A program made the translations under genes and the position numbers. DNA of 64,000 bases from a virus (taxonomy: Duplodnaviria; Caudoviricetes): positions 23,736 to 87,735 of the IMG/VR virus record IMGVR_UViG_2667527228_000001, one strand, 5' to 3'. Below, one piece after another: positions 49,883 through 63,365 of the stretch. Under the pieces are notes generated by a model. It had not been told where the DNA came from and did not search any database. It saw only the letters and a program-made list of their open reading frames with translations. Each line of letters opens with the position of its first letter. Position 1 is the stretch's first letter.

Positions 49883-50187
49883 GTGCAGTAGAGGACGGCA
49901 GCTACGTTGATCGGCTGTACTCGATAGCCGTTGGCTGGCTTGGATGGCCGCCCGACCTCGCTTGGCGAACACCGCTGCCGGAGTTGTTCTTGGCAGTAGA
50001 CGCACGTATTGAGTGGGCACAAATGACAAACCCCTTCGGTACCAAGGGAGGGGTTCAGAAGGAAAAACCCAAGCCTTCGACTGTTGCCGAGAAGCTGCGG
50101 CAAGTGCTAACAGGCAAGCGTGCAGCTTGAGTCGTGTCTCGACTGAAACGAACAGTCCGAATTCATAGATGCAGTAATGATTGTGCG

Positions 50188-50214
50188 AAGCCCGGCCAAG
50201 CGCTGGGCTTTTTT
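50188..50214 (+). terminator. Terminator-like hairpin before tape measure gene
   Basis: AAGCCCGGC-CAAGC-GCTGGGCTTTTTT. Confidence 0.72.
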
Positions 50215-50230
50215 GTGCCCGGAGAAACGC

Positions 50231-53200
50231 ATGGCAGACACCGATGTTCAGGGGATGTTGGTTCGCATCGAGGCGACCACTGCGCAACTGCGGCAGGAAA
50301 TGGCCCGTGCTGACTCCAGCGTTTCGCAGGCCTCAGGAAAAATCGACAAAAGCCTTGGTCGTGTGGATGAGGCGTTCGACCGTGCCGGAGACAGCGCTCA
50401 GGACGCTGCCGGGCTGATTAAGGGTGCACTGGCAGCAGCAGTCGGCGCGGCCTCCATCAGCAAGATCATTGCGACAGCCGACTCCTTCGGGCAAATGTCA
50501 GACCGGATCGGCATGGCCACCGGTAGCGTGGGCGAATACAACGAAGTCCAGGACCGCTTGCTGGAGACCGCTCAGCGAACCTACCGTCCATTAAGTGAAG
50601 CCCAGGAGCTGTACATCAGGACAGCGGACAGCTTGAAGTCCATGGGTTACAACACCGGCCAAGCGCTGGATGTAATGGACAGTTTTAGCTTTCTGCTGGT
50701 GACCAACTCAGCGACGGCCGACAAGGCGAGCTCCGCGATCGATGCCTACTCGAAGGCGCTTCAGACCGGTAAGGTCGAGGCGGATGGCTGGCAATCGATT
50801 CTTGCCGCGATGCCGAGCGTGGTCGACACCATTGCCAAGGCAACAGGCCAATCTGCTGAAGAAATTCGCAGTCTTGGCGCCCAGGGTAAGCTGAGCCTCG
50901 ATGTGCTGACCGAAGGCTTGCAAAAGTCTGCCGTTGCGAATGGCGTTCTGGCCGACAGCATGAGCGTGTCGGTGCATGATGCACTGCAAAGTCTGTCGAA
51001 TGCCTTTGGCGTGTACATCAATCACCTGAATGAAACCAGCGACTTCACCGGCGTGCTGGCTAGCGGGATCGTCGGGCTGGGTGAGAATCTGGGAACGTTG
51101 GCCGATGTCGCCATTGTCGCCGCCATTGCAGCCCTCACTCGTTACGGTGCCAGCGCTGTTGGTTCCGCCGCGCTCGCGGCGCGTTCCGCGTACAAGGACG
51201 TCGTCGCACGGAAGGCCCAGGCAATCGCCGTCTTGTTGGCGGCACAAGCTGAACAACAGAAAGCACAAACCACGGTCTTTCTGGCAGAAAAGGAAGCCAT
51301 TGCAGCCCGCGGGACCGCCGTACAGACGCAGATGTCGTTGCAACTCGCCGAAGCCAGAATGGTCGAGACACGGGCAACCAACGCAGTAGCAGCCGCTCAG
51401 CAGGGCGTCAGCCGAGCCGGTGTCAGTTTGCTTGGCATATTGGGTGGGCCGGTCGGTGTGGCCACGCTCGCCCTCGGCGCCGCGACCGCCTTCCTGACGC
51501 TTCGCGACAACAGCAGTGTTCTGGAGCAGAAGCTTGGGGACCTCAGTGACCCACTCGATACGCTGACCGAGCGCTTCAACAAACTCAACCGGGCTACCCA
51601 GTCGGTCACGTTGCGCGAGCTGCGTGCCGAAGTCGATAGCACCCAGCAGAAGCTGGGCCAGATGGCAGAAGGGATCGCCGACAAGTTCGAAAACGACCTG
51701 CGCAACATGGGCGCGGCCGGTGCTGACGGCTTGATGGCGGGGCTGGTACCGCTGCCGGCATCAGCTCAAGCGGCTTTGGAGTTGGTGCGCCAAGCATCGA
51801 AAGACCAGGCGTCCGGCATTGCGGTTGATTGGAAAAATGTTGCTGATCGGCTGCGAGAGTATCCAGAAGTCACAGAGGAAATGGCCAGGGCCGTGGAGTC
51901 TGGCCAGATCAAAGTTTCTGATCTGAGCGCGGTGCTGAAAAAGCAGCAGGACACGGTTGCCGAGCTCACCGGTGTAGTTGATGAAAACACACGGGCTGAG
52001 CGTGAGAACGCCGCTGCCAAGGCGAAGGCCGCCGGCATCGGTCAGGCCTACCTCGATCAGTTGCAAAAGCAATTGGCCGCGGCCCAGGACAAAACGGCAC
52101 TGGAAGCCGCCAACCGGTTCATCGCCGAGAACAAAGACCTCACCGAAGGGATGGTCGTAGCCATTCGTTCGGCTGCCGCTGCTAAGGACGCGCAGAAGGC
52201 GTCCGACGACGCGGCAACCAAGGCCACGAAAAAGAACACCAGCGAGACGGAATCGGCCGCCAAACTTCAGTTGAAGGCGTTCGAGTCGACCGAGGAAGGC
52301 TACAAACGCCAGATCGAGCTGATCAACACCACCGGCGACAAGCAGAAGGATGCCACCGAGGTCGCGAAGCTTTCGTTTGAACTTCAGGAAGGCAAGCTCG
52401 GCAAACTGTCTGAGGCACAGAAAAAACGCCTGCTGGGCATGGCCGCCGAACTTGATGCGCTGAACAAAATCAAGAAGGCGAACGAGGACGAGCTGAAGCT
52501 GACGGCCTTCAAAAATGCCCAGGCTGTCGGCACGCAAACCGCACAGGACGGATTTGACCAGGACCTGGCCGGCATCGGCCTGGGTGACAAAGCCCGGGAT
52601 CGGATGCGGGCTGACCTGGCCCTTCGGCAGAAATACGCCACCGACCTGGCCAGCTTGAACGAGCAACGCAACACCGGGCAGATTTCGCCTGAGCTGTACG
52701 CCAATGAAACCACCGTGCTGGAAGAGGAACTGGCCAAACGCCTGTTGGCTCAGCAGAGCTATTACACCCAGCTCGATGAATACCAATCGAACTGGATGAA
52801 TGGTGTCAACGAAGCCTGGGCCAATTACGCCGATGCGGCACAGAACTCCATGCAGATTGCCTCCGACTTCACCGCGGGCACTCTGGGCAGTGCGCGGAGT
52901 GAGCTGGGCAACTTCTTTTCGGACGTGGCCACCGGGGCCAAAGATGCTGACGATGCATTTGGCGACATGGTGGGCAACTTCGCCAAGTCGCTGGTCAATG
53001 CGCTGGCGGACATGGCGGCACAGTGGCTGATTTATCAAGGCGTGCAGATGCTGGTGGGCAAGACCACACAAGTCAGTGCGGCCGCAACCATGGGCGCCAA
53101 TGCTCAGGCAACGGCGTTGCAGGCTGGTCTAGCTGCGTTCGCGTCGACGGCCGCGATCCCCATCGTTGGTCCTGTGCTGGCTCCCGCTGCCATGGCGACG

Positions 53201-53662
53201 GCGCTGTCTATCACCAGCCCGCTTGCGGCTGCCGTGGGCATGACCGCCATGGCGGGTGCTGGCTTCATGGAGGGCGGCTACACCGGCAACGGTCGGCGCG
53301 ATGAAATTGCCGGTCCTGTTCACCGCGGTGAGTACGTTTTCGATGCTGAAGCCACCGCGCGCATCGGCGTGGGCAAGTTGGAGGCGTTGAGCGATGGCAG
53401 AACGTCGATGATCGGCCAACAGGGTGCTGCGCTCGTTACCGGCTCTCAAGGCGGTGGCCAGGGCAGCAATGACAGCGGCATGAACGTCGAGATCCACAAC
53501 TATGGTGCAAGTCAGGTCCAGACCAGGCGCGGTGACAAAGGGCAACTGCAGGTCATCATCGACGCCGTGCGCGAGGACTTCCAGCAAGGCGTGGCTTCCG
53601 GTGACTCGCCGTATTCCCGGGCAATCGAAGGCACCTATCACGGGATGAGGAGGGGGGCATGA
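50231..53662 (+). CDS. Tape measure protein
   Basis: About 1140 aa, Ala-rich helical; GGYTG...AGPVHRGEYV near C-terminus. Confidence 0.92.
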   Translation: MADTDVQGMLVRIEATTAQLRQEMARADSSVSQASGKIDKSLGRVDEAFDRAGDSAQDAAGLIKGALAAAVGAASISKIIATADSFGQMSDRIGMATGSVGEYNEVQDRLLETAQRTYRPLSEAQELYIRTADSLKSMGYNTGQALDVMDSFSFLLVTNSATADKASSAIDAYSKALQTGKVEADGWQSILAAMPSVVDTIAKATGQSAEEIRSLGAQGKLSLDVLTEGLQKSAVANGVLADSMSVSVHDALQSLSNAFGVYINHLNETSDFTGVLASGIVGLGENLGTLADVAIVAAIAALTRYGASAVGSAALAARSAYKDVVARKAQAIAVLLAAQAEQQKAQTTVFLAEKEAIAARGTAVQTQMSLQLAEARMVETRATNAVAAAQQGVSRAGVSLLGILGGPVGVATLALGAATAFLTLRDNSSVLEQKLGDLSDPLDTLTERFNKLNRATQSVTLRELRAEVDSTQQKLGQMAEGIADKFENDLRNMGAAGADGLMAGLVPLPASAQAALELVRQASKDQASGIAVDWKNVADRLREYPEVTEEMARAVESGQIKVSDLSAVLKKQQDTVAELTGVVDENTRAERENAAAKAKAAGIGQAYLDQLQKQLAAAQDKTALEAANRFIAENKDLTEGMVVAIRSAAAAKDAQKASDDAATKATKKNTSETESAAKLQLKAFESTEEGYKRQIELINTTGDKQKDATEVAKLSFELQEGKLGKLSEAQKKRLLGMAAELDALNKIKKANEDELKLTAFKNAQAVGTQTAQDGFDQDLAGIGLGDKARDRMRADLALRQKYATDLASLNEQRNTGQISPELYANETTVLEEELAKRLLAQQSYYTQLDEYQSNWMNGVNEAWANYADAAQNSMQIASDFTAGTLGSARSELGNFFSDVATGAKDADDAFGDMVGNFAKSLVNALADMAAQWLIYQGVQMLVGKTTQVSAAATMGANAQATALQAGLAAFASTAAIPIVGPVLAPAAMATALSITSPLAAAVGMTAMAGAGFMEGGYTGNGRRDEIAGPVHRGEYVFDAEATARIGVGKLEALSDGRTSMIGQQGAALVTGSQGGGQGSNDSGMNVEIHNYGASQVQTRRGDKGQLQVIIDAVREDFQQGVASGDSPYSRAIEGTYHGMRRGA

Positions 53663-54152: not shown

Positions 54153-54587
54153 ATGCTCACCAAATACCTACTTGCCCCCTACAAAGACGGCGGACGGGGT
54201 CCGGCTGCCTTCGATTGCTGGGGGCTGTGCATCGCTGTGCGACATGAGGTGTTCGGCTTGCCGTTGCTGCCGGAACTGGGCGGCGTTGGCAGAAGCAAAC
54301 CGAGGGAGTGCACCCAGGCGTATCGCATGCTTTCTCAGGTCATGGAGGTCTGTGAGCCGGAACCTGGTGCCATCGCTGCGGTGTTCCGCGGTGAGCTGTG
54401 CATTCACGTCGGCGTGGTGATCAACGCCGATGATCGCCTCGCCGTGCTGGAGACCAACCCGGGCGCCGGCGCCCGCTGGTTGCGTATTTCCGACTTCAAC
54501 GCCACCTACCTAAAGGTTGTTTACTATCGTGATCAGCGTATTCCCGAACAAGCTGGACGGCGTTGCCTTCGAAACCCACAAGACTGA
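54153..54587 (+). CDS. NlpC/P60 tail assembly protein (gpK-like)
   Basis: GRG...DCWGL, HVGV. Confidence 0.85.
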   Translation: MLTKYLLAPYKDGGRGPAAFDCWGLCIAVRHEVFGLPLLPELGGVGRSKPRECTQAYRMLSQVMEVCEPEPGAIAAVFRGELCIHVGVVINADDRLAVLETNPGAGARWLRISDFNATYLKVVYYRDQRIPEQAGRRCLRNPQD

Positions 54588-57567
54588 ACGGCGCATGACG
54601 CTGGCGGCGTGGCTGAAATCTATTGCCCCGAGTTATGAACCCCGCGAGTCGCCGCCGGTGAGCATCACCGTGAATGGTGAAGTCATTGATGCGACGCGCT
54701 GGGCGCACTTTGAGTTCGCTCCTACGGATGACGTGGAAGTTCGCGTTGAGCCCAAGGGTGCCGCAGCCATCTTCGGCGCCATTCTTGTTGCGGTGCTCGC
54801 GGTCGCGGTATCGCGGGCGATGGCGCCGAAAATCCCTGGTACGTCGACGTCACCCAATGGTGGCGAGTCGTTGGCCGAGGCATCTGCCAAGGGCAACAAG
54901 ATCAAACTGGGCGAGATCATTCGCGAGATCGCCGGCCACCAGCGGGTTTACCCCAGCTACCTGACGCCACCGGTGCGACGTTTCTCCGCGCCGCGCGAGC
55001 AGTGGGTCGAGATGCTGCTGTGCGTGGGCAAGGGCAGATATCAGATCCCCACCAGCAAGATCAAAGTGGGCGAAACGCCCCTGATCAGCCTGGGTGCTGA
55101 CGCCCAGTTCGCCGTTTACAACCCGGGTGACAATCTGTCGGGGCAGAGCGCGGCGCAGTGGTGGCACAGCGCGACGGAAGTCGGATCGAGTGCCAATGGC
55201 TCGGCCGGTCTTGAGCTGACGCTGTCCACTGATTTGACTCAATCGTCTCCGGCGTCGGCGCTGCAGTTCAATGGCTCCAGCATTTCGATCCCTGCCGGTG
55301 GCGGTTCGTTTCCGGCGGATTGGTCCAGCGGCCTGATTATCCGGCTGCTGTCGCCTTACCTGTACACCGTGGTCGACGTAGGTGCCGGGCGCGATATCTT
55401 ACGAGGTGATCTCGCCATGCTCGCGCCGTATGTGGGAATGCCAATCGAGGTGATCGGCGCTAACCAAGGCCTTTATGAGGTTCACTCTTATACGCCATTT
55501 GCTCCCGCAATCCCGCCCGCACCGGGAGTCGCCTCGACGCTGACAGCCTCCTCCGTGCCAAGTCGTTATAACTTTGACGTGACGCCGCTGACGTTCACGG
55601 TGTCCCGCGGCGGGGCGCCGTACACCGCGACCTTGAACACTGCAACAACGGATCTGGCAAGCCTGGTCGCCGCAATCAATACAGCGAAAGGCGGTGCACC
55701 TTACACCGCCATCGCGTCAGGCGGCCGTGTACGGCTCCTCGAAACAGCGCCTTATTCTGGGCAAACGCTTGCGGTTAGTTCGGCTTCTGAGGTTTTTGGG
55801 GTTGCTCCTACGGGCACCATCGGTACACCCACCACGAGCGGCACCCCAGAACAACCGGCCCAGATGACACTCAATTTTGAAGGTGGAACTCCGGCCGTTG
55901 GATTGATCCCTGGCGTGGGGCTCGCCACCATCGGCCCGCGAGGCCTGCGATACCGGATCACTTCCTACAGCGCAACCATGCTTGCCGTGGAGCGCCTGAC
56001 CGCCAGTGGGGCCCCCGATACATCGTGGCCTGGTTTCAGCTACATGGAGACCATGAATGGTGTGGTCATGCTCGACGCATCGAACCTGCAGGGCGGATAT
56101 CGAGGGCCTTTCGCCTGCTGCCCTGAAGGCGAGCGAGTGACGGAAATCGAATGGGACGTGTTGTTCCCGCAAGGCTTGTGCGGTGTCGGGCGGGAAGGGC
56201 AGATCTACCCGGTCAATGCCTACCACACCTTCGAATACCGTGACATGGCGCTGTCCGGAGCGTGGACAGTGATCGATATGCAGCACAACGGCGGCTCGCT
56301 GGATGCTCAGGGCTTTACCAGCAAAGTGGTACTGCCCTATGCCATGCGGCCCGAAGCGCGGATCAAACAGCGATTCGTACACCAGCCTGGGCGTATCGAC
56401 AACGAGAAGCGCGACGACACCGTGTGGTACGGCCTGCGCGGCAAGATGGTCGGGGCGCCGCTGCGCTACGACGGCATGACCACCATCGCCGTGCGCGTGC
56501 GAAACGGCGATCGGCTGTCGGCACAGTCGGAAAACCTGGTCAGTGTCGAAGCGACCCGGGTGCTGCCGGTGCGTTCCGGTGGTGGCTGGGTCGGCGAGGC
56601 GCCGACGCGCGACATCGTGCCGTGGTTTATGTACGTCGCCAAGTCCGCCGGCTACACCGATGCGGACATCGATCTCGCCGAGCTGGATCGACTCCACGAG
56701 GTGTTTCGCGCCCGGGGCGACTGCTTCGACATGACTATCGATGACGTCAGCACGATCAAGGACGCTCTGAACGACGTGTTGGCGGCCGGGTTTTCCGAGC
56801 TGACGGTCAGCCGCGGCCTGTTGCGCCCAGTGCGCGACGAACCGCGCTCGGTGTTTGAGCAGATGTACACCCCGCAGAACATGACCAAAGCGCTGAAACG
56901 GCGAATCATCTTTCCGTCACCGGATGACTTTGATGGGGTCGACGTTGAATACGTCAGCGCCCTGACCTGGCAGGCGGAGACCGTTGAATGCCGGTGGCCG
57001 GGGGATCTGGGGTTGAAGGTCGAGAAAATCAAAATCCCCGGTGTGTCTGATCGCAACAAGGCCTATCAGATCGGCATGCGCCGGCGCGGGCATCAGAAGT
57101 TTCGCGGCGACTCGTTCAGTTGGGAGACCGAATTGGATGCGCTCAACTCTAACTACTTGAGCTACGTGGCCGCCGCGGATGACATCCCCGGGTACGGCCA
57201 AAGCTCAATCCTCATGTCGATAACACCCAGTGCCGGCTCGCTGGTGTTGGAAAGCTCGGAACCGTTGCCCTGGAAGGACGGCGCCGCGCACGTGGTCGGA
57301 CTTCGCCGGCCGGACGGCACGCTCAGCGGTCCCTGGCCAGCCGCCCGGGTCGATGAGTACCGGCTGGCTGTGCCGACTTTGGATTTTGTGCCGGACCTGT
57401 CGTGGGACATCGAGCCGCCGCACCTGCTGTTCGGGGAAAGCACCCGTTGGTGCTACCCCGTACTGATGACCGTGGCCAACCCTTCGAGCGAAGGGCGGGT
57501 GTCGGTTGAAGCGATTCCCTACGACGCCCGGGTCTATCTGTACGACAACAGCGCTGCACCGGCATAA
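54529..57567 (+). CDS. Central tail tip / host specificity protein (gpI-J-like)
   Basis: About 1010 aa; ubiquitin-like N-terminus, DGVDVEY motif. Confidence 0.85.
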   Translation: MISVFPNKLDGVAFETHKTERRMTLAAWLKSIAPSYEPRESPPVSITVNGEVIDATRWAHFEFAPTDDVEVRVEPKGAAAIFGAILVAVLAVAVSRAMAPKIPGTSTSPNGGESLAEASAKGNKIKLGEIIREIAGHQRVYPSYLTPPVRRFSAPREQWVEMLLCVGKGRYQIPTSKIKVGETPLISLGADAQFAVYNPGDNLSGQSAAQWWHSATEVGSSANGSAGLELTLSTDLTQSSPASALQFNGSSISIPAGGGSFPADWSSGLIIRLLSPYLYTVVDVGAGRDILRGDLAMLAPYVGMPIEVIGANQGLYEVHSYTPFAPAIPPAPGVASTLTASSVPSRYNFDVTPLTFTVSRGGAPYTATLNTATTDLASLVAAINTAKGGAPYTAIASGGRVRLLETAPYSGQTLAVSSASEVFGVAPTGTIGTPTTSGTPEQPAQMTLNFEGGTPAVGLIPGVGLATIGPRGLRYRITSYSATMLAVERLTASGAPDTSWPGFSYMETMNGVVMLDASNLQGGYRGPFACCPEGERVTEIEWDVLFPQGLCGVGREGQIYPVNAYHTFEYRDMALSGAWTVIDMQHNGGSLDAQGFTSKVVLPYAMRPEARIKQRFVHQPGRIDNEKRDDTVWYGLRGKMVGAPLRYDGMTTIAVRVRNGDRLSAQSENLVSVEATRVLPVRSGGGWVGEAPTRDIVPWFMYVAKSAGYTDADIDLAELDRLHEVFRARGDCFDMTIDDVSTIKDALNDVLAAGFSELTVSRGLLRPVRDEPRSVFEQMYTPQNMTKALKRRIIFPSPDDFDGVDVEYVSALTWQAETVECRWPGDLGLKVEKIKIPGVSDRNKAYQIGMRRRGHQKFRGDSFSWETELDALNSNYLSYVAAADDIPGYGQSSILMSITPSAGSLVLESSEPLPWKDGAAHVVGLRRPDGTLSGPWPAARVDEYRLAVPTLDFVPDLSWDIEPPHLLFGESTRWCYPVLMTVANPSSEGRVSVEAIPYDARVYLYDNSAAPA

Positions 57568-57579
57568 GGACACGACGTA

Positions 57580-58044
57580 ATGATTTCATACCCAGAGGGT
57601 CTGCCGCTGCCGCAGCGGGACGGCTACGGGTTCCAGTCGGTCAGCCCCATGGTCCGATCGGAACTGCAAAGCGGGCGCTCCAGGCAGCGGCGCCGATACA
57701 CCTCGGTGCCTACAACCGCTTCCGTGACGTGGCTGCTGGACGATGCCGAGAGCCAACTGTTTGAAGGGTGGTTCGAGTACGTGCTGATGTCCGGTACGTT
57801 GTCCTTTGAGTGCCCGCTGAAAACGCCGCTGGGGCTGGAGACCTATCAGGCCCGGTTCACCGATATCTATAGCGGCCCGACGTTGGTGGGCGACAGTTTC
57901 TGGCGTTTCACCGCGAACCTGGAACTGCTGAAGCGGCCGTTGTTGGACCCTGAATGGATCCTGATCCTGCCGGAATACGTCCTTATGTCGGACATCTTCG
58001 ACAGGGCAGTGAATCTGGAGTGGCCCCGCCACTTCGACGAATAA
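57580..58044 (+). CDS. Distal-tail-like (gpM/Dit-like) minor tail protein
   Basis: YPEGLPLP...SGRSRQRRRY...FEGWF. Confidence 0.68.
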   Translation: MISYPEGLPLPQRDGYGFQSVSPMVRSELQSGRSRQRRRYTSVPTTASVTWLLDDAESQLFEGWFEYVLMSGTLSFECPLKTPLGLETYQARFTDIYSGPTLVGDSFWRFTANLELLKRPLLDPEWILILPEYVLMSDIFDRAVNLEWPRHFDE

Positions 58045-58133
58045 CACACAGTGTCGGCCTGCTCAGACCTGCACGAACTTATGACATCCCACCGGTATAC
58101 TGCCGGCCTTTCCCGTTCCCAGGTTTGGTCGTC

Positions 58134-60401
58134 ATGGTTAATCGCCGGCAATTACTACAAATCAGCGCTCTCGGTACCGCCTCTTTCGCGGCGCCGTTGG
58201 CGTATTCTGCGAGCTCGATAACCATGGCCTACAACACCGGTAACCCGATCGGATCGACCTCTCCGAAGGATCTGTCTGATAACGCCCGTAACCTCGACTA
58301 TTTCGTCAACGGCCAAGAGGCGTCTTACCCCGATCGAAAGGGGGTTCCACGGAAGTCCTGGAAGGGGATGGAGGCGGAACATAACGTCGACCAGGTGCGA
58401 CGTGAGTCAGAGTTTGACGCCGCCCAAGTACACCGGACGGAAGTTTTTGATGCTACACAAGGGAATCGTGAAGACCAATTCAACACTTGGCTGGACGGGT
58501 CTGGCTTTGAGAATGACCCACTTGTCTACGTAGACGGCTCGCCACTCCGGGTTGATCGCGTTACGCAGCTGGTAGATCGCGGGGGGAGCCTGTACACCGT
58601 TAAACGTCCCGCCTCATTCCCATACGGCCTTACAGGGGAGTGGGCCACCGACGCAACTCACCTTGTCCTGCGAAATGATCAAAGCATTCGGCAGGACTTG
58701 GCGGAACCCACTGGTGCAGGTCGGGTCGGCTGGACCCGGCGACCCACCCTCGCGGCGGAGTCGTCGGTCGATTACATTCTTTCGTTGCAGCCAATCAACA
58801 TTTGGGAAAATGAGTTCACCTCTCTAATCACGGAGAAGCCGGATGCACATGCCCCTCAAACGTGGGACTGGGCCCCGGCAATTCAGGCGGCTAACGATCT
58901 GATTCGCACGCGATTCAACACATATGGCCCTGGGATTCAGAATGTAATTCAATTTCCCGGCTCCATATACAAAGTAAAATCTAAGATCACTCTGTCTGCT
59001 TTCGTCAAAATAAAATCTGTCGGTATGGTCGTATTTCAGACCGAAGTTGCAAATGACTCTGCATTCCACTTCACTGCTGCTACTGGAGACTATTCGTCGA
59101 ATACTGCGGTGATTAACAAGCAGCAATGGATGCGCGGTCCCTTCATTAATGGTGCCGACGGTGGTTTTACCTTCCATAACATGCTGGGCAGAGCGGGCTG
59201 TATCGGCTTGGAAATTGGTTCACGGACGGACCTTGGCGAACTCAGCCCCACTGCACGGTATACGTCCTGTGAATATAATATCGAGGGGTATGCCATTGCG
59301 ATTAAGTTTAATCGGTTTCGAAACTATATCGCGACGTTTGAAAAGGTTCACTTAGAGCTTAACGATGAGCTTGTGGTTTTTGGCGAGCCGTCGATGGCTA
59401 ACGTTCTAGATTCTGGCGAAAATATTCATTTTATTGGATGTACTTTTGCCAACTGTACTACTGCTTTTCGGTGGTACTGCGACGGTTTTGATGTGAACTT
59501 AACTAACTGCTCCTATGACTACATAGGGACAGTTTTCCGCCTACACCGTTTGTACAAGAAAATTACCGTACACGGTGGGCATATGGAAGGTATTGGCGGT
59601 GTGCGTGCTCATGATGGTGTCGGCGGCATTTTGCTTGAGGAGTCGGCGAGCTCTGCGGACACCGGTACACAGTGCCTAGTCCAATTTATCGGGGTATCTG
59701 CGGTAACTCCGCCAGGAAACGTATTTCGGGGATCAAGTAAGGTCCAACTGGAGCTGGATTACGAGTATCGCAAAATCGGTACGGATAACACTCCAGCAAA
59801 ATTGTTTCTAGTAGACCCACGTATAACGCTCCGGCGAAAGGCAATTGTCAACCAGCACCGGGCCACTCTGCCTAGTTGGGCGGTGAACCATCAGCGCAAT
59901 CCGACATTTACTTTGGACGCTGAAGGCTCAACAGCCGCTCCGACCGGATATACACGCGTTGCTGGCGGAGCGCCAAGTGTTATCGAGGCTGCGTCGGCAT
60001 CTGTTTTGGGGGGTAAAGCGATCAAGATCACAGGTGCAGCAAGTGGTAGTTATTACATTCTTGACGCCAATGATAAAACTCCATGCGCCCCAGGTGATGT
60101 CGTATTGGCGAACCTATTTGCTAAATTTCCGGCTGACGTAACTGCCGCCCAGTGTTCGATTACATGCCGACTCCAGTTCTTCAGTTCTGCGGATGAGGTG
60201 TTGCTCACAACAAGTGAGGTATCAAACGACTATGGTAATAGTGAGTTGATTATGGGCGAGTGGAGCGCACACGTTTGGGCTAGGCAAGCAGTAGCGCCGG
60301 CGGGTACTGCTTACTACAAGGCCCGGTTCGGCGTAACTGGTATCGGGATGAACAGCCGGATAACGTACATTACGGGCCTGTACTCAACAATTCTCAAATA
60401 G
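58134..60401 (+). CDS. Tailspike/depolymerase (virion anchor + beta-helix + CBM-like domain) with an upstream in-frame Tat-type signal; probable virion start at 58224
   Basis: MAYNTGNPIGS anchor; DWAPAIQAA...FPGSIY beta-helix cap; MVNRRQLL...AYSA leader. Confidence 0.85.
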   Translation: MVNRRQLLQISALGTASFAAPLAYSASSITMAYNTGNPIGSTSPKDLSDNARNLDYFVNGQEASYPDRKGVPRKSWKGMEAEHNVDQVRRESEFDAAQVHRTEVFDATQGNREDQFNTWLDGSGFENDPLVYVDGSPLRVDRVTQLVDRGGSLYTVKRPASFPYGLTGEWATDATHLVLRNDQSIRQDLAEPTGAGRVGWTRRPTLAAESSVDYILSLQPINIWENEFTSLITEKPDAHAPQTWDWAPAIQAANDLIRTRFNTYGPGIQNVIQFPGSIYKVKSKITLSAFVKIKSVGMVVFQTEVANDSAFHFTAATGDYSSNTAVINKQQWMRGPFINGADGGFTFHNMLGRAGCIGLEIGSRTDLGELSPTARYTSCEYNIEGYAIAIKFNRFRNYIATFEKVHLELNDELVVFGEPSMANVLDSGENIHFIGCTFANCTTAFRWYCDGFDVNLTNCSYDYIGTVFRLHRLYKKITVHGGHMEGIGGVRAHDGVGGILLEESASSADTGTQCLVQFIGVSAVTPPGNVFRGSSKVQLELDYEYRKIGTDNTPAKLFLVDPRITLRRKAIVNQHRATLPSWAVNHQRNPTFTLDAEGSTAAPTGYTRVAGGAPSVIEAASASVLGGKAIKITGAASGSYYILDANDKTPCAPGDVVLANLFAKFPADVTAAQCSITCRLQFFSSADEVLLTTSEVSNDYGNSELIMGEWSAHVWARQAVAPAGTAYYKARFGVTGIGMNSRITYITGLYSTILK

Positions 60402-60412
60402 CAATTGCAAGT

Positions 60413-60434
60413 GCCCGCCCCGTGCGGGCTTTTT
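60413..60434 (+). terminator. Terminator after tailspike
   Basis: GCCCGC-CCCGT-GCGGGCTTTTT. Confidence 0.8.
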
Positions 60435-60481
60435 CATGCCTCGGAGAAATATGCCAATCAAATGTTTTGCGTGATGGGTTG

Positions 60482-61501
60482 TTAAGTCCATTCATCTGGA
60501 TTGTTTTTTTTCCAATCCGATAAGGCTGACTCCAATGTATATTCATACGAATAGCCATTTTCTAAAAGAAAGGTTGGTAAGATGTTGTTAGATTTTACTA
60601 GTTTTTTCACTCTGGTCGGTTTGAAAGGGTGCTGTATTCCCAGTGGTGTCGCAATTGCATCAATGCAATGAGAAGCTGACAATAATAATGTGAATGGCAC
60701 CGAGGGTACTCGTCTTTTTATTTTGGCAACTATGCAGACTGATTTCACGTACTCCTCGATGGAGGGGCCTGGATTCATAGTCATGTTGAATAGTGAGAGG
60801 TTGGACTTGTTGGCATGCTGCTTTTTCAGAACCCACAACATTGCTATACAAAGCTCTTTCACGTATGTGCCGGCTTTTCTGGTTTCACGATTGCCGGTGT
60901 AAAAAAAGTATCGGTTCAAAACCGACTTGATTAATCGAGATACGTTGCCTCCCTCACTTGGACCGAATACCACGCCGGGGCGAGCAATAACTAAGTGCCG
61001 TGTTTTCTGATCGGCAGCAAGCCACATCTGATGAATTTTTTCGGCGGCGAGTTTCGAGCCACCGTAAGCCGTGGTTGGCGATGGAGTAGAGCGCTCGTCT
61101 TTAGCTTGATCGCTTGGACCGTATGGGGAAATGGAACTGGTGAAAATTATATTGCTGCAATTTATCTGCTCGGCCCATGCGCATACATGCTCAGCACCTA
61201 GTAGATTGGTTTCGTAATATTCAAAATCTTCATGCCCGGGCTCTCTGTGAACAGCGGCGAAATTTGCTACCAGATAAACACTTTCTTGTGGAGTCCACAC
61301 TATAGGTTTTCGAACGTCGCCATTTACTTCTTTGATGTTTGAAGTCTGAGTAATCAAAGCTTCTCTATAGGGAAAAGGCTTTTGGCCTACCTGCTCTTTA
61401 TCGTACAAATAAACCACGTCAACTGTTTTCGATTCGATTAGGTGTTTGGCAAAGAAGGTGCCAATAAAACCGGAACCTCCAAAGATCACAGCGCAGTTCA
61501 T
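60482..61501 (-). CDS. Moron: NAD-dependent epimerase (extended SDR), Gnu-like
   Basis: GGSGFIG, AAVHRE, FTSS, YGGSK, RPGVVFG; AT-rich; RBS AAGGA. Confidence 0.88.
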   Translation of the reverse strand: MNCAVIFGGSGFIGTFFAKHLIESKTVDVVYLYDKEQVGQKPFPYREALITQTSNIKEVNGDVRKPIVWTPQESVYLVANFAAVHREPGHEDFEYYETNLLGAEHVCAWAEQINCSNIIFTSSISPYGPSDQAKDERSTPSPTTAYGGSKLAAEKIHQMWLAADQKTRHLVIARPGVVFGPSEGGNVSRLIKSVLNRYFFYTGNRETRKAGTYVKELCIAMLWVLKKQHANKSNLSLFNMTMNPGPSIEEYVKSVCIVAKIKRRVPSVPFTLLLSASHCIDAIATPLGIQHPFKPTRVKKLVKSNNILPTFLLENGYSYEYTLESALSDWKKNNPDEWT

Positions 61502-61652
61502 ATTTGTCCTTAAATAGCTTCAGCCTGAAATTTTTAATACATAAATTTTTTCCTAATTCTACCAGCTACATGACTGTTGTGGCCTGAGTGAATCCACAGA
61601 TCAAAAAAAATTAGCACCGCCTGGTGCGGAATTGTTACGCCTGGAGAAACGC

Positions 61653-62078
61653 ATGACTGAAACTGAAAAAGATCGCGATATTCTTGCCCGCACCTTGTGG
61701 GGCGAGGCTCGTGGCGAATCGTTGGCTGGCCAGATCGCCGTAGCCTGGACTATCCGCAACCGCGTAAATGACGGCAAGCCCAAGTCATGGTGGGGCGAAG
61801 GCTACATCGGCGTGTGCCAGAAGCCGTACCAGTTCAGTTGCTGGAACAAGAGCGACCCGAACTTCCCCTTCCTGAGCGGCGCAAGAGCGATCCCGTTCCG
61901 CGAATTTGCCCAGGCACAGATCGCGGCTGAGCAGGTGATGGCCGGCAAGGTGCCTGATCCCACCGGTGGGGCCACGCATTACTACGCGATCGCCATGAAG
62001 ACACCGCCAGTTTGGGCAGCCAAGGCGAAGCAGACCCTCAAACTTGGCGGGCACGTCTTCTTCAAGGACGTCCCATGA
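61653..62078 (+). CDS. Endolysin, SleB/Hydrolase_2 cell-wall hydrolase family
   Basis: LARTLWGEARGE, YQFSCWN, DPTGGATHYY, GHVFF. Confidence 0.9.
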   Translation: MTETEKDRDILARTLWGEARGESLAGQIAVAWTIRNRVNDGKPKSWWGEGYIGVCQKPYQFSCWNKSDPNFPFLSGARAIPFREFAQAQIAAEQVMAGKVPDPTGGATHYYAIAMKTPPVWAAKAKQTLKLGGHVFFKDVP

Positions 62079-62596
62079 ATCCCGCAACGCTGAAGTTCGT
62101 ACTGATCGGCGTGTTGGTGTTGCTGCTCATAACCACCGGCGCCACCTGGAAGGTTCAGGACTGGCGCTATGGCAAGCAGCTGGCCGAGCAATCCGATCTG
62201 CACAAAGACGATTTATCCATGATCAGCAACGCAGCCGCGGCCAAGGTCCGCGCCGATCAAGACAAACGTCTGGTGCTTGAGCAGCGCTTGGAAGCCATCG
62301 ACCAAACCCATTACAAGGAACTGAGCGATGCTCAAACGAAACAGGATCACGTGCGTGACCGCCTTGCTACTGCTGAGCTCAGGCTGTCAGTCCTTCTCGA
62401 CGCCGCAGATTCAGCCAGTGGCTATTCAGTGCCAGCCTATACCGGCGCCGGCGGCATGGTTCATGGAGGAACGCGCGCCCGACTTGACCCAGCGCATGCT
62501 CAACGAATTGTCTCCATCACCGACGAAGGTGACCGGGGATTGATTGCCTTACGCGCATGCCAAGACTACGTGCGGAACATAAGGTCAACAAATTAA
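62075..62596 (+). CDS. Rz: i-spanin
   Basis: N-terminal TM, coiled coil, ARLDPAHAQR...ACQDYV. Confidence 0.87.
   Translation: MNPATLKFVLIGVLVLLLITTGATWKVQDWRYGKQLAEQSDLHKDDLSMISNAAAAKVRADQDKRLVLEQRLEAIDQTHYKELSDAQTKQDHVRDRLATAELRLSVLLDAADSASGYSVPAYTGAGGMVHGGTRARLDPAHAQRIVSITDEGDRGLIALRACQDYVRNIRSTN
62328..62543 (+). CDS. Rz1: o-spanin lipoprotein nested in Rz
   Basis: Lipobox LSSGC; PIPAPAAW. Confidence 0.8.
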   Translation: MLKRNRITCVTALLLLSSGCQSFSTPQIQPVAIQCQPIPAPAAWFMEERAPDLTQRMLNELSPSPTKVTGD

Positions 62597-62645: not shown

Positions 62646-63365
62646 TTAAAATGCATGTGGCTTAAATGTAGTCGTTTCAGTGCTTCTAAGTGAGACGAAG
62701 TAAGGGTTGCTTCTGGTGGAAATTACGGCGTCATAATCTGCACTACAGCCTTCGGCAACCAGGCTTACTTTTTCAAATGCAATATCAAGCCATTCTAGAA
62801 TTTCATCTACGTTTGCACCATTTGTAACGCGCTCAATAAAAGAATTGATTTCATCAATGCCGATTGTATTTTCAAAGCTGGAGCTGCCAGTTCCTAAATG
62901 TAGGAGGATCGGCTGAGGGTTAGCTCTGCGAACGTTTATAGTATTGTAGTTACTAAATTTCGTGTAAATGTGGAGAGTGGTGAAGAATGAGCTGGTTTTT
63001 TCATCAAAGAATGAAACTATTGTTTGGTTTTCCATTTGAGGTAAAGCGTTAACTAGTTCGTCTCTGGCATCGAAGTTGAAATGATTTTCTGCGCATGATC
63101 TAACTATGTTTATGACTTCGGATGGGTCCGATAAGTCTTTTATTTGATCGAGATAGAGGTGCTCGTTTGTGGTTCCGGCAGCACTCACTGCTACATTATT
63201 GTTTTTGTTTAGCTTGGTTTTTTTAAATCCGTCTATCGTTCCTCCACCGTTAGTGGTAATGGATAAATTTCCAACTGTCATCGTTATCGATTCAGGTGCA
63301 TTACCCCTGCGGTCGCTAGCAATAAGAGTGAAATCCTTGTGTAGAATATTTAAAACGAATGTCAT
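62646..63365 (-). CDS. Moron: proteasome-beta/HslV-like Ntn-hydrolase fold protein
   Basis: Thr1, ASDRR (D17/R19), K..G spacing and LGTG motif; very AT-rich; RBS AGGGAG. Confidence 0.68.
   Translation of the reverse strand: MTFVLNILHKDFTLIASDRRGNAPESITMTVGNLSITTNGGGTIDGFKKTKLNKNNNVAVSAAGTTNEHLYLDQIKDLSDPSEVINIVRSCAENHFNFDARDELVNALPQMENQTIVSFFDEKTSSFFTTLHIYTKFSNYNTINVRRANPQPILLHLGTGSSSFENTIGIDEINSFIERVTNGANVDEILEWLDIAFEKVSLVAEGCSADYDAVISTRSNPYFVSLRSTETTTFKPHAF

Follow-up and report, generated by a model that had tools for sequence, protein, structure and literature searches.

The general assumption is that virion proteins remain cytoplasmic and carry no signal peptide. Some phage depolymerase genes yield two forms, one bound to the virion and one free and soluble, the latter arising through an internal start or proteolysis and being released by lysis. 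Among the muralytic lysis proteins, there are phage endolysins that use the Sec pathway, either with a Sec signal peptide or with a signal-anchor-release (SAR) domain, an N-terminal, weakly hydrophobic segment rich in Ala, Gly, Ser and Thr that is Sec-dependent and remains uncleaved. Signals for the twin-arginine (Tat) pathway follow the consensus [ST]-R-R-x-F-L-K at the boundary of the n- and h-regions; their h-region has about 12-20 residues, carries no charge and is weakly hydrophobic, and a helix breaker and a small-x-small peptidase site come after it. Prophages may also contain morons, self-contained units of promoter, gene and terminator.

The closest described system is bacterial. WceF of Pantoea stewartii, with homologues in Erwinia and Pantoea, is a trimeric right-handed beta-helix enzyme of ~80 kDa whose substrate is the exopolysaccharide of the cell itself, and it has an N-terminal Tat-type signal of ~28 residues; according to its authors, export of WceF still awaits experimental demonstration (PMC7949094). 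For phages, a preprint figure legend gives the P22 tailspike as a cytoplasmic virion protein with no signal peptide, and a 2026 screen for Tat motifs in Klebsiella phage proteins reports none (PMC13412088). Our literature search, supplements apart, found no paper on a Tat or other signal peptide of a phage tailspike or tail fibre. Serotype-converting morons of temperate phages are associated with acetylation-based exclusion (PMC13123978).

The DNA analyzed here (the window) is a stretch of 64,000 nt from a D3-like Pseudomonas prophage. Its genes are ordered as terminase, portal, tape measure, minor tail proteins, a J-like central tail protein (phrog_469; 54517..57567, + strand), a virion structural protein of 154 aa (phrog_384; 57580..58044, +) and the spike, the last two tail proteins before the spike being assigned from the ORF list and PHROG profiles. 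Given the J-like protein, the spike sits at the end of a tail module of the siphovirus kind, of which it is the last gene, the distal position taken as characteristic of tailspikes. Of 26 distinct loci with the leader, 20 also have a phrog_384 homologue directly 5' of it. In the window this neighbor ends at 58044, leaving a gap of 89 nt to ATG 58134. From this ATG the ORF list and translation give a single frame of 755 aa plus stop (58134..60401, +), which starts MVNRRQLLQISALGTASFAAPLAYSASSIT and continues from M31 as AYNTGNPIGS. A still longer in-frame ORF from ATG 57954 was rejected, as it overlaps the 5' gene and homologues have a stop just before the conserved GLVV reading. Twelve nucleotides 3' of the spike stop codon, a sequence scan found an intrinsic-terminator-like hairpin with a T run (60413..60429, +), so that the gene is flanked by a conserved -10-like box on its 5' side and a terminator on its 3' side. 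Glycan-modifying genes adjoin the spike directly downstream; by context annotation, a low-GC nucleotide-sugar epimerase gene (60482..61501, − strand) lies between the spike and the lysis genes.

That the gene product is a tailspike, as the preliminary description of the locus had it, is borne out by a PHROG-matched anchor and a right-handed parallel beta-helix predicted by AlphaFold2 and Foldseek. The virion-anchor domain (residues 31-181; 58224..58676, +) matches PHROG tail protein and tail fibre families, with phrog_34100 (1.3e-46) and 11 others, and shares homology with the N-terminal parts of D3 orf27 and of many spikes from Pseudomonas, Klebsiella and Aeromonas phages; tblastn gave hits in 139 phage records. 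Residues 240-755 (58851..60398, +) are modelled as a catalytic beta-helix followed by a C-terminal beta-sandwich resembling carbohydrate-binding modules. The AlphaFold2 model has a mean pLDDT of 76.7, which is high from about residue 220. The best Foldseek matches were Klebsiella K2-2 TSP (8iq5, E 1.7e-15), CBA120 TSP4 (5w6h) and Kp7 gp52, with 7xyc and HK620 TSP also found and CBM4/16 modules matching the C-terminal end. Neither a Pfam search of the spike (E<=0.01) nor a PDB sequence search with P0001 (E<=1) returned a domain or a chain. In 17 homologues, this catalytic module is combined with a different anchor. By its fold, the spike is a putative depolymerase.

ATG 58134 opens an extension of 30 codons in frame with ATG 58224, and the elements first noticed there (an RRxLL motif, a weakly hydrophobic h-region, a Pro and A-Y-S) are all present in the translation. 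The proposed signal peptide comprises residues 1-25 (58134..58208, +), with MVNRR as n-region, QLLQISALGTASFAAP as h-region and LAYS as c-region; its limits, including cleavage after A-Y-S, were read from the sequence. In the same reading, QLLQISALGTASFAAP is an uncharged, weakly hydrophobic segment with a helix breaker, and the L-A-Y-S that follows supplies a small-x-small site. Residues 26-30 (ASSIT; 58209..58223, +) lie between the proposed cleavage site and M31, and their DNA includes the GCGAG 5' of the internal ATG. Among 20 aligned proteins, M1, V2, R4, R5, L7, S11, F18, P21, A23 and Y24 are invariant. AlphaFold2 gave pLDDT values below 50 over residues 1-34, which puts the leader outside the fold. 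A search of the ESM Atlas with residues 1-30 gave no usable match by features; by structure, it gave only short matches, at the N-terminal ends of proteins of the periplasm (FtsP, multicopper oxidases, TctC/Bug binding proteins and others), a lead at most, since matches so short mean little.

The leader stands at the start of 81 of the 120 listed homologue representatives, with RR in every one of the 81. When the 30 leader residues alone were searched with phmmer against 1.84 billion representatives, 31 matches at E<=0.001 were obtained, all at target residues 1-30. At the DNA level, 32 of the 174 loci compared carry it, representing 27 distinct sequences from non-aeruginosa Pseudomonas prophages and metagenomes. 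Across 24 distinct sequences, the sense frame has a dN/dS of about 0.19 and no stops (0/24). Third codon positions vary most (entropy 0.28, 0.16 and 0.66 by codon position), and 13 of the 30 codons show synonymous variation only; the 60 nt 5' of the leader had no codon-type periodicity in the same comparison. All other frames contain stops or have a higher dN/dS, above 2 in four of them. The wobble-sharing antisense ORF (58079-58225) was considered as the selected frame and dismissed (dN/dS 0.47, stops in 5/24). The sense-frame dN/dS and the absence of stops rule out chance or mis-framing as the origin of the leader. These comparisons support a leader that is translated in the frame of ATG 58134 and is under purifying selection. 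It is also kept across homologues with different catalytic domains, so that the non-conservation or interruption by stops that would have spoken against the initial proposal was not found within the leader-bearing clade.

Not all of this conservation need come from selection on the protein. The dS in the leader is 0.43 against 1.9 in the adjoining anchor, four to five times lower, indicating that conservation is partly due to recent recombinational spread or to constraint on the DNA or RNA. The leader cassette is rare, occurring in three of 401 sampled genomes of the genus, and by tree comparison it moves between anchor subtypes. A quick tree gave a patchy distribution, with at least four changes forced by well-supported branches; it shows no more than patchiness, as the anchor domain is recombinant.

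Loss, divergence and transfer of the leader can each be seen among relatives. In six distinct related loci (labelled 'DEGEN'), one common 43-nt deletion removed the Shine-Dalgarno (SD) sequence, the ATG and the first leader codons, and half of the -10-like hexamer is deleted as well. There, the sole available start is preceded by CTGCGAG-N9/10-ATG, the same context as that of the internal ATG in the window. The persistence of these loci shows the leader to be a dispensable, accessory feature. In three other loci (L046, L047 and L121), which have a different anchor subtype, the leader has diverged by many residue changes, and it keeps RRQ.IK, a small/hydrophobic h-region, the Pro and A-H-A at the aligned site. 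Finally, in two metagenomic proteins, P0143 (complete, 542 aa) and P0138 (a fragment), the leader is joined directly to the neck and the catalytic part, anchor residues 52-181 or so being absent; a search of viral contigs for the genomic locus of P0143 found none. P. aeruginosa phages such as D3 do not have the leader, and neither do the Klebsiella phages that were checked. In phage records (among them D3, PMG1, PP9W and Klebsiella phages), tblastn alignments extended as far as query residue 2 or 13, but a leader there was rejected: in the three records inspected individually (D3, Kp4882-1 and 5 LV-2017), the upstream frames are unrelated or have stops.

The preliminary description had also pointed out a -10-like hexamer, TATACT (58096..58101, +), 32 nt 5' of ATG 58134 and lacking a clear -35. 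The hexamer is indeed kept in all 27 distinct leader-bearing loci as TA[TC]A[CA]T (CATACT in one locus), 28-36 nt 5' of the leader ATG; no -35 was found near it, and a sigma-70 consensus scan of 57500-60700 found no promoter. Set against the layout of a moron, the spike gene shows the conserved -10-like hexamer and the terminator-like hairpin, and neither a -35 nor a consensus promoter. The judgment in the preliminary description that both ribosome binding sites are weak applies to the internal ATG but not to the leader ATG. Alignment places an SD-like AGGT (58121..58124, +) at a 9-nt spacing from the leader ATG, and this element is conserved as (G/T/C)AGGT or AGGA (also given as AGGT/GAGGT) 9 nt from the start. 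The anti-SD duplex is -4.2 kcal/mol in the window, within a range of -4.1 to -10.0 (mean -5.85) across 26 loci. Consensus and alignment further give a near-invariant 12-nt stretch, GGTTTGGTCGTC (58122..58133, +), directly 5' of the start codon. At the internal ATG (M31; 58224..58226, +), the duplex is -2.2 in the window and -2.74 on average, against a background mean of -2.79. This ATG is nevertheless the usual tail-fibre start, as first suggested: five PHROG tail-fibre profiles begin aligning at residues 29-37, leaderless relatives such as phage D3 orf27 begin at the position of M31, and the database gene call for the window locus is the 725-aa form from M31 (P0002). Met occupies this position in 77 of the 81 leader-bearing proteins and is missing from four; in L103/L104 the codon is ACG. 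In several Pseudomonas genomes, NCBI gene calls use the leader ATG as the start.

The Tat-signal models PF10518 (cut-off 22.7 bits) and TIGR01409 (cut-off 16.7) are the sole Pfam or NCBIfam families that match the N-terminus, with weaker matches listed to E<=10. PF10518 matched the window protein below its cut-off (12.1 bits, E 0.2, residues 1-19), and TIGR01409 gave no match to it at E<=10. In the family, 14 of 20 members match PF10518 at E<=10 (best E 0.0091) and eight of 20 match TIGR01409 (best E 0.056); the best PF10518 score belongs to P0138 (18.6 bits, E 0.0018). Both models thus stay below their curated cut-offs. The motif is N-R-R-Q-L-L-Q in the window and [NS]-R-R-x-L-L-K in 80 of 81 homologues, which we counted as a Tat motif, though L stands for the consensus F and, in the window, Q for K. 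The host genome, which carries an identical spike copy (L001/G001), has adjacent tatA, tatB and tatC ORFs, with TatC scoring 242 bits. It also encodes 17 similarly built Tat signals that pass the threshold; the leader itself is not among its 26 TIGR01409 matches. The Tat-leader interpretation proposed at the outset is supported in part: the leader, the selection on it, the signal parts, TatABC, the conserved hexamer and the tailspike fold speak for it, but the Tat HMM scores are sub-threshold.

With moderate confidence, we favor a real Tat-type signal that would export part of the depolymerase. Its strongest competitor, which we consider unlikely, is that the extension, although translated and under selection, does not direct export and acts instead in the cytoplasm as a docking or chaperone-binding tag, as a membrane tether for tail assembly or as an N-terminal piece of the spike used at infection. 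As part of the virion, the spike has to be assembled in the cytoplasm, and the better SD sequence of the form with the leader probably makes that form the main product; the proteins lacking Met31 and the sub-threshold HMM scores point the same way. A cytoplasmic role does not readily explain why the layout of n-region, h-region, Pro and small-x-small site survives the divergence of its residues, or why the leader is found on proteins without an anchor domain; its location outside the predicted fold and the six deletion derivatives that do without it also count against such a role. Export could instead proceed through Sec, with a cleavable signal or one of the SAR type found in some phage endolysins, and the RR would then be mere n-region charge. 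The short n-region, the h-region rich in Ala, Gly, Ser and Thr and the failure of both Tat models to reach threshold could be accommodated in this way. We rate Sec export as rather improbable, given that RR is invariant in 81/81 proteins, that the motif agrees with the Tat consensus in 80/81, that Tat-signal models are the only Pfam and NCBIfam models to match the N-terminus and that the cargo is a large trimeric beta-helix of the type that Tat would carry in WceF. Although a SAR composition fits the leader, the RR..K motif and the small-x-small site would suit a cleaved Tat signal better.

Two further readings can be given very little weight. One holds that the leader region is untranslated, being conserved as DNA or RNA (a promoter, a 5' UTR or a recombination joint for swapping spike modules), with the protein made from ATG 58224. 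The low leader dS, the almost invariant 12 nt 5' of the ATG, the movement of the cassette between anchor subtypes, the window's gene call at M31 and the use of the equivalent ATG by the leader-deleted relatives would all agree with this, but the codon-position variation is confined to the sense frame, and neither the four frames with dN/dS >2 nor the antisense frame shows comparable constraint. No structured RNA emerged either: an Rfam search of the leader region gave no match at E<=1, folding of the single sequence gave a z-score of -1.08 and the alignment fold had a covariation term of -0.17. In a long-range helix between the pre-ATG1 spacer and GCGAGCAA before ATG2, 96.6% of cells can pair, and it was discarded as a conserved RNA element when 468 of 500 shuffles reached the observed covariation score. 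The other reading, equally improbable, is that the family leader is functional while the window copy is weakened or decaying and no longer exports. Position 9, four residues after the RR, is K in 80 of 81 leader-bearing proteins and Q in the window, the SD energy is at the weak end of the range and the Tat HMMs score the window protein lower. Against decay, the reading frame is uninterrupted, none of the RR, h-region, Pro and A-Y-S is missing, and P0007, the single listed homologue without the K, also has Q.

On the favored Tat reading, the tailspike gene would start at ATG 58134, and its first 25 or so residues would form a twin-arginine-type signal peptide composed of N-R-R-Q-L-L, a weakly hydrophobic h-region with much Ala, Gly, Ser and Thr, then a Pro and A-Y-S as the peptidase site. 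This leader is part of a portable cassette (-10-like box, AGGT Shine-Dalgarno and leader) placed before an ordinary virion-anchor domain. TatABC would carry the folded, trimeric leader-bearing depolymerase to the periplasm, with cleavage after residue 25, and virions would receive the spike protein that escapes export, either because ATG 58224 supports some weak initiation or because docking of the anchor on tails outpaces Tat. We infer both the two-start mechanism and a function in the lysogen. What counts against the favored reading is that a virion protein must stay cytoplasmic, yet the internal ATG has background SD pairing and is replaced by a non-Met codon in 4/81 proteins. More speculatively, the -10-like box might let the lysogen make the exported enzyme, which might trim the cell's own O-antigen or EPS from the periplasmic side. 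The broadest version, which we put forward as a doubtful but possible extension, is that a portable cassette recombines onto tailspike genes to yield a Tat-exported depolymerase made in the living lysogen, cutting the receptor glycan from the periplasm, which would amount to lysogenic conversion, or exclusion of superinfection, by a new and enzymatic route, and that anchor-less forms of the P0143 type are intermediates toward bacterial Tat-exported enzymes like WceF.

If the Tat reading is correct, a phage structural enzyme gains a second role as an exported remodeller of the host surface, phage spikes become linked to bacterial enzymes such as WceF, and naturally exportable depolymerases become available for study. 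The database entry for this locus and 37 of the 120 listed relatives start at the internal Met, and such inconsistent start calls would hide the leader from signal-peptide surveys.

Compared with the known systems, the locus combines features found separately elsewhere. The preliminary description knew of no equivalent, which holds for phages, where we found no case, but not for bacteria, in which the glycanase WceF combines a tailspike fold with a Tat signal (PMC7949094). What the two proteins would share is a Tat-type signal before a tailspike-fold, glycan-targeting enzyme. They differ in setting, WceF lying in an EPS biosynthesis cluster, whereas the window spike lies in a prophage tail module and retains a virion-anchor domain. 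No PDB match was found for P0001 (E<=1), and no WceF chain appeared in the profile search or the Foldseek rows listed. The absence of a sequence match and the tail-module location make the likeness one of design, not of membership.

Among phage proteins, D3 orf27 and related P. aeruginosa siphophage spikes are the nearest, with a homologous anchor (39-45% identity over about 170-200 residues) and the same position after a J-like protein, glycan-modifying genes following directly downstream (in D3, iap and an O-antigen acetylase). They differ in lacking the leader: in D3 the ATG is immediately preceded by a terminator and GGAG, and what lies upstream in the same frame bears no relation to the leader. 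Dual-form depolymerases resemble the proposal made here in that one spike gene would give two forms with two destinations, but here the longer form would bear an export signal and pass through the inner membrane while the cell is alive. Sec and SAR endolysins are likewise phage envelope-degrading enzymes that use an N-terminal hydrophobic segment and a host export pathway; they are muralytic and use Sec, whereas the window cargo would be a structural depolymerase of the virion and the motif is twin-arginine. Serotype-converting morons (D3 iap, O-acetylase) share the neighborhood of the window spike and its presumed target, the receptor surface glycan. Where those morons alter the synthesis of the glycan, the enzyme proposed here would be an exported, receptor-destroying one that cuts it.

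The spike gene is a 755-codon frame opened by ATG 58134, and its product begins with MVNRRQLLQISALGTASFAAPLAYSASSIT before running into M31 (ATG 58224), which continues AYNTGNPIGS. The preliminary description had reported both in-frame start codons (the second giving MAYNTGNPIGS) and the TATACT hexamer at 58096-58101 accurately. Its view of ATG 58224 as the usual start also held, with alignments to PHROG tail-fibre profiles starting from residues 29-37. Relatives from P. aeruginosa (phage D3 orf27 among them), Azotobacter and Klebsiella begin at this canonical Met, and what precedes their start is either unrelated sequence or a terminator together with GGAG. The database gene call at the window locus is likewise the 725-aa form starting at M31. 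Start-codon calls are inconsistent across the spike family: the 755-aa form is present in the ESM Atlas, and the ATG of the 30-codon extension, or leader, is called by NCBI in several Pseudomonas genomes.

The distal part of the window is a siphovirus-type prophage. It comes from an IMG/VR provirus record 87,735 bases long, and the spike has an identical copy on a contig labelled Pseudomonas vancouverensis strain Dha-51. The large terminase (42189) and portal (43871) are followed by the tape measure (50177-53662) with minor tail proteins next to it, a J-like protein (54517-57567) and, directly before the spike gene, a 154-aa virion structural protein (57580-58044). A homologue of this last protein is found directly 5' of the leader in 20 of 26 distinct leader-bearing loci, with a J-like match also present in 14 of these 26 within the upstream DNA available. 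On the opposite strand 3' of the spike is a low-GC nucleotide-sugar epimerase gene (60482-61501, minus strand), after which come the endolysin and Rz. These lysis genes (61632-62596), in which a Hydrolase_2/SleB-type endolysin overlaps an Rz-family gene, are located 3' of the tail genes and epimerase, not 5' of the head genes; no holin was identified. Beyond Rz, in a stretch of GC ~0.40, a 239-aa ORF (62646-63365, minus strand) has no match in Pfam, PHROG or PADLOC, and may be prophage-end cargo of unknown kind.

By structure prediction, the window protein is a tailspike. An AlphaFold2 model based on an alignment of 18 catalytic-part homologues had a mean pLDDT of 76.7, with high confidence from about residue 220 and residues 1-34 unstructured. 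Its best Foldseek matches were Klebsiella K2-2 TSP (8iq5, E 1.7e-15), CBA120 TSP4 and Kp7 gp52, and the C-terminal end matches carbohydrate-binding modules. In 17 homologues, including two with the leader, the same catalytic module is joined to clearly different N-terminal anchors. This module (58851-60398) shows 38-74% identity across at least five unrelated anchors (homologues P0122-P0134), one of which is the T7-type tail fibre N-terminus (PF03906 in P0132). Its distribution reads as a clear case of spike module shuffling. The GC content drops inside the spike gene, from ~0.57 to 0.45-0.55.

The leader is conserved and, judging from its pattern of substitution, translated. A search seeded with residues 1-260 retrieved 258 proteins at E<=0.001; among the 120 listed, 81 start with the leader, 37 at the canonical Met and 2 otherwise, and some of the 37 "leaderless" entries may be short start calls. 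The RR pair proposed as a twin-arginine motif is present in 81/81 of the leader-bearing proteins among those listed, with K at position 9 in 80/81 and Met at position 31 in 77/81. At the DNA level, 174 anchor-encoding loci were fetched from genome, viral and metagenome collections, and 32 of them carry the leader, representing 27 distinct sequences. Selection was analyzed on 24 distinct sequences, leaving out the diverged L047 and L121, with the likewise diverged L046 outside the set. Codons 2-27 have a dN/dS of 0.18-0.19, the entropies at the three codon positions are 0.28, 0.16 and 0.66, and variation is purely synonymous at 13 of the 30 leader codons; in the same analysis, the 60 nt upstream showed no codon periodicity. 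An antisense ORF of 48 codons (58079-58225, minus strand) exactly spans the leader and has common wobble positions, so codon periodicity alone cannot separate the two. As a candidate for the selected frame it was rejected, with a dN/dS of 0.47 and stops in 5/24 sequences, and four of the five other frames have dN/dS >2, with 11 to 24 of the 24 sequences interrupted by stops. Since all five other frames have stops and higher dN/dS, the sense frame is evidently the one under selection. Pointing in the opposite direction, the dS in the leader is 0.43 versus ~1.9 in the next 26-44 codons, so that either recombination has spread the leader DNA more recently or a further constraint acts on it.

The leader behaves as a cassette. 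A hexamer of the form TA[TC]A[CA]T (CATACT once) lies 28-36 nt 5' of the leader ATG in 27/27 distinct loci, and an AGGT-type Shine-Dalgarno sequence is found 9 nt before that ATG in the leader-bearing loci (27 distinct). The diverged leader of L046, L047 and L121 (e.g. MINRRQMIKISALGIASSAVPAAHAMS) has the same flanking DNA motifs and precedes a different anchor subtype, the nearest relatives of which are without any leader. On the anchor-domain tree, the leader state requires at least four changes on well-supported branches; this is a quick tree, the careful search being unfinished, and it holds 143 distinct rows out of 174 loci after removal of L077, L162, duplicates and any rows that were short or interrupted. 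Between the Shine-Dalgarno and the leader ATG, 12 nt (58122-58133, GGTTTGGTCGTC) are almost invariant in 26 loci, far beyond the needs of a spacer. They can pair with GCGAGCAA just 5' of the internal ATG, with 96.6% of cells paired, and covariation in this helix was not above shuffles in the 26-locus alignment. About 25-45 nt 5' of the -10-like box there is also a near-perfect inverted repeat, ATGGCCAG-N2-3-CTGGCCAT, located after the upstream gene's stop codon in many homologous loci (L006, L022, L023, L101, L102, L118 and others). It is present in some leader-deleted loci and degenerate in the window (~58050-58075), and might function as a hairpin or as an operator or activator site.

Natural deletions bear on which start codons are usable. 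Six distinct Pseudomonas-type loci (L005, L020, L025, L030, L035 and L037) have one common 43-nt gap. Lost with it are the Shine-Dalgarno, the leader ATG with the codons just after it, and half of the -10-like box. Both flanks of the gap align with leader-bearing loci (11 loci of our choosing were aligned), the residual leader DNA carries small frame-breaking indels, and the six nest among leader-bearing rows in the anchor-domain tree. These loci show that the spike works without the leader, and that the ATG equivalent to 58224, after the same CTGCGAG context, can act as a start. The mean anti-SD duplex energy is -5.85 kcal/mol at the leader ATG (-4.2 in the window) and -2.74 at the internal ATG (-2.2 in the window; background mean -2.79), with the start of the leader-deleted derivatives also weak at -3.0. 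Because this energy favours the leader ATG, the long form is probably the main product. Initiation at the internal ATG, as the preliminary description envisaged, is possible, its only support being that this ATG is conserved and that the deletion derivatives start there. Alternatively, and with no need for a second start, the anchor may dock on tails before Tat acts.

The Tat reading itself drew evidence of both kinds. The tripartite layout survives in the diverged leaders, and tatABC is encoded in the host genome, where 17 comparably built Tat signals score above threshold; no Pfam or NCBIfam model touches the N-terminus other than those for Tat signals. However, every Tat-model score of the leaders was below the curated cut-off: with PF10518 the window protein reached 12.1 bits against 22.7, TIGR01409 gave no match to it at E<=10, and the leader was not in the host-genome TIGR01409 match list. 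The motif deviates from the Tat consensus in having L for F, and the window leader has Q where 80/81 homologues have K. In favour of an export signal, residues 1-34 lack structure in the model, and all 31 matches of a phmmer search with the 30 leader residues fall at residues 1-30 of their targets. Two proteins found with the leader alone have it fused to the neck and catalytic part with the anchor missing: P0143, complete at 542 aa, in which residues 48-119 align with window residues 182-253, and the fragment P0138. An anchorless protein that retains the leader and is unable to attach to the virion would be consistent with an exported enzyme. We conclude that the leader is a real, selected and mobile N-terminal module with Tat-signal anatomy. 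That it exports the protein by some route, Tat or other, seems fairly likely, and towards the Tat reading we lean only slightly.

The -10-like box on one side and a terminator (60413-60429) on the other flank the spike gene. The gene 3' of it in the window, the epimerase, is glycan-modifying, and similar genes were found in five of the seven downstream ORFs that we picked from other leader-bearing loci: Acyl_transf_3 in L023 (5523-6557), Bac_transf in L118 (2637-3404), hexapeptide transferases in L003 (4872-5297) and L021 (5692-6285), and a weak MORN match in L018, with no match for the ORFs of L106 and L002. Phage D3 (L014, 6456-8504) has the same arrangement without the leader, with iap and an O-antigen acetylase after the spike. 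The slot 3' of the spike appears to be a hot spot for cargo of the serotype-conversion type. This arrangement would agree with a surface-glycan receptor and lysogenic conversion, and is not specific to leader-bearing phages. A cellular function for the leader-bearing spike, such as the proposed trimming of the lysogen's own receptor, is one we infer.

The named sources of the leader are all non-aeruginosa Pseudomonas. Of 401 genomes sampled from the genus, three, counting the host, contain the exact start-region pattern (reversed-pattern control, 0), as do six IMG/VR contigs; among 50,697 phage records, no leader match survived inspection (D3 and two Klebsiella phages were inspected). The preliminary description knew of no equivalent. 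For phage spikes this stands, in that we found nothing in the full-text literature on a signal peptide of a phage tailspike or tail fibre, and where phages come up in the passages found of a 2026 Tat review (PMC13673990), the context is a different one. However, WceF of Pantoea stewartii comes close: this trimeric glycanase has a tailspike fold and a Tat signal of 28 residues, and its gene sits in an EPS cluster; the enzyme's localisation had not yet been measured, according to that report (PMC7949094). WceF is the nearest described system, having a Tat signal on a tailspike-fold enzyme, but it belongs to an EPS cluster, whereas the window gene is in a prophage tail module. What would be new here is the combination of a putative Tat signal and a tailspike depolymerase in such a module, both being of known kinds.
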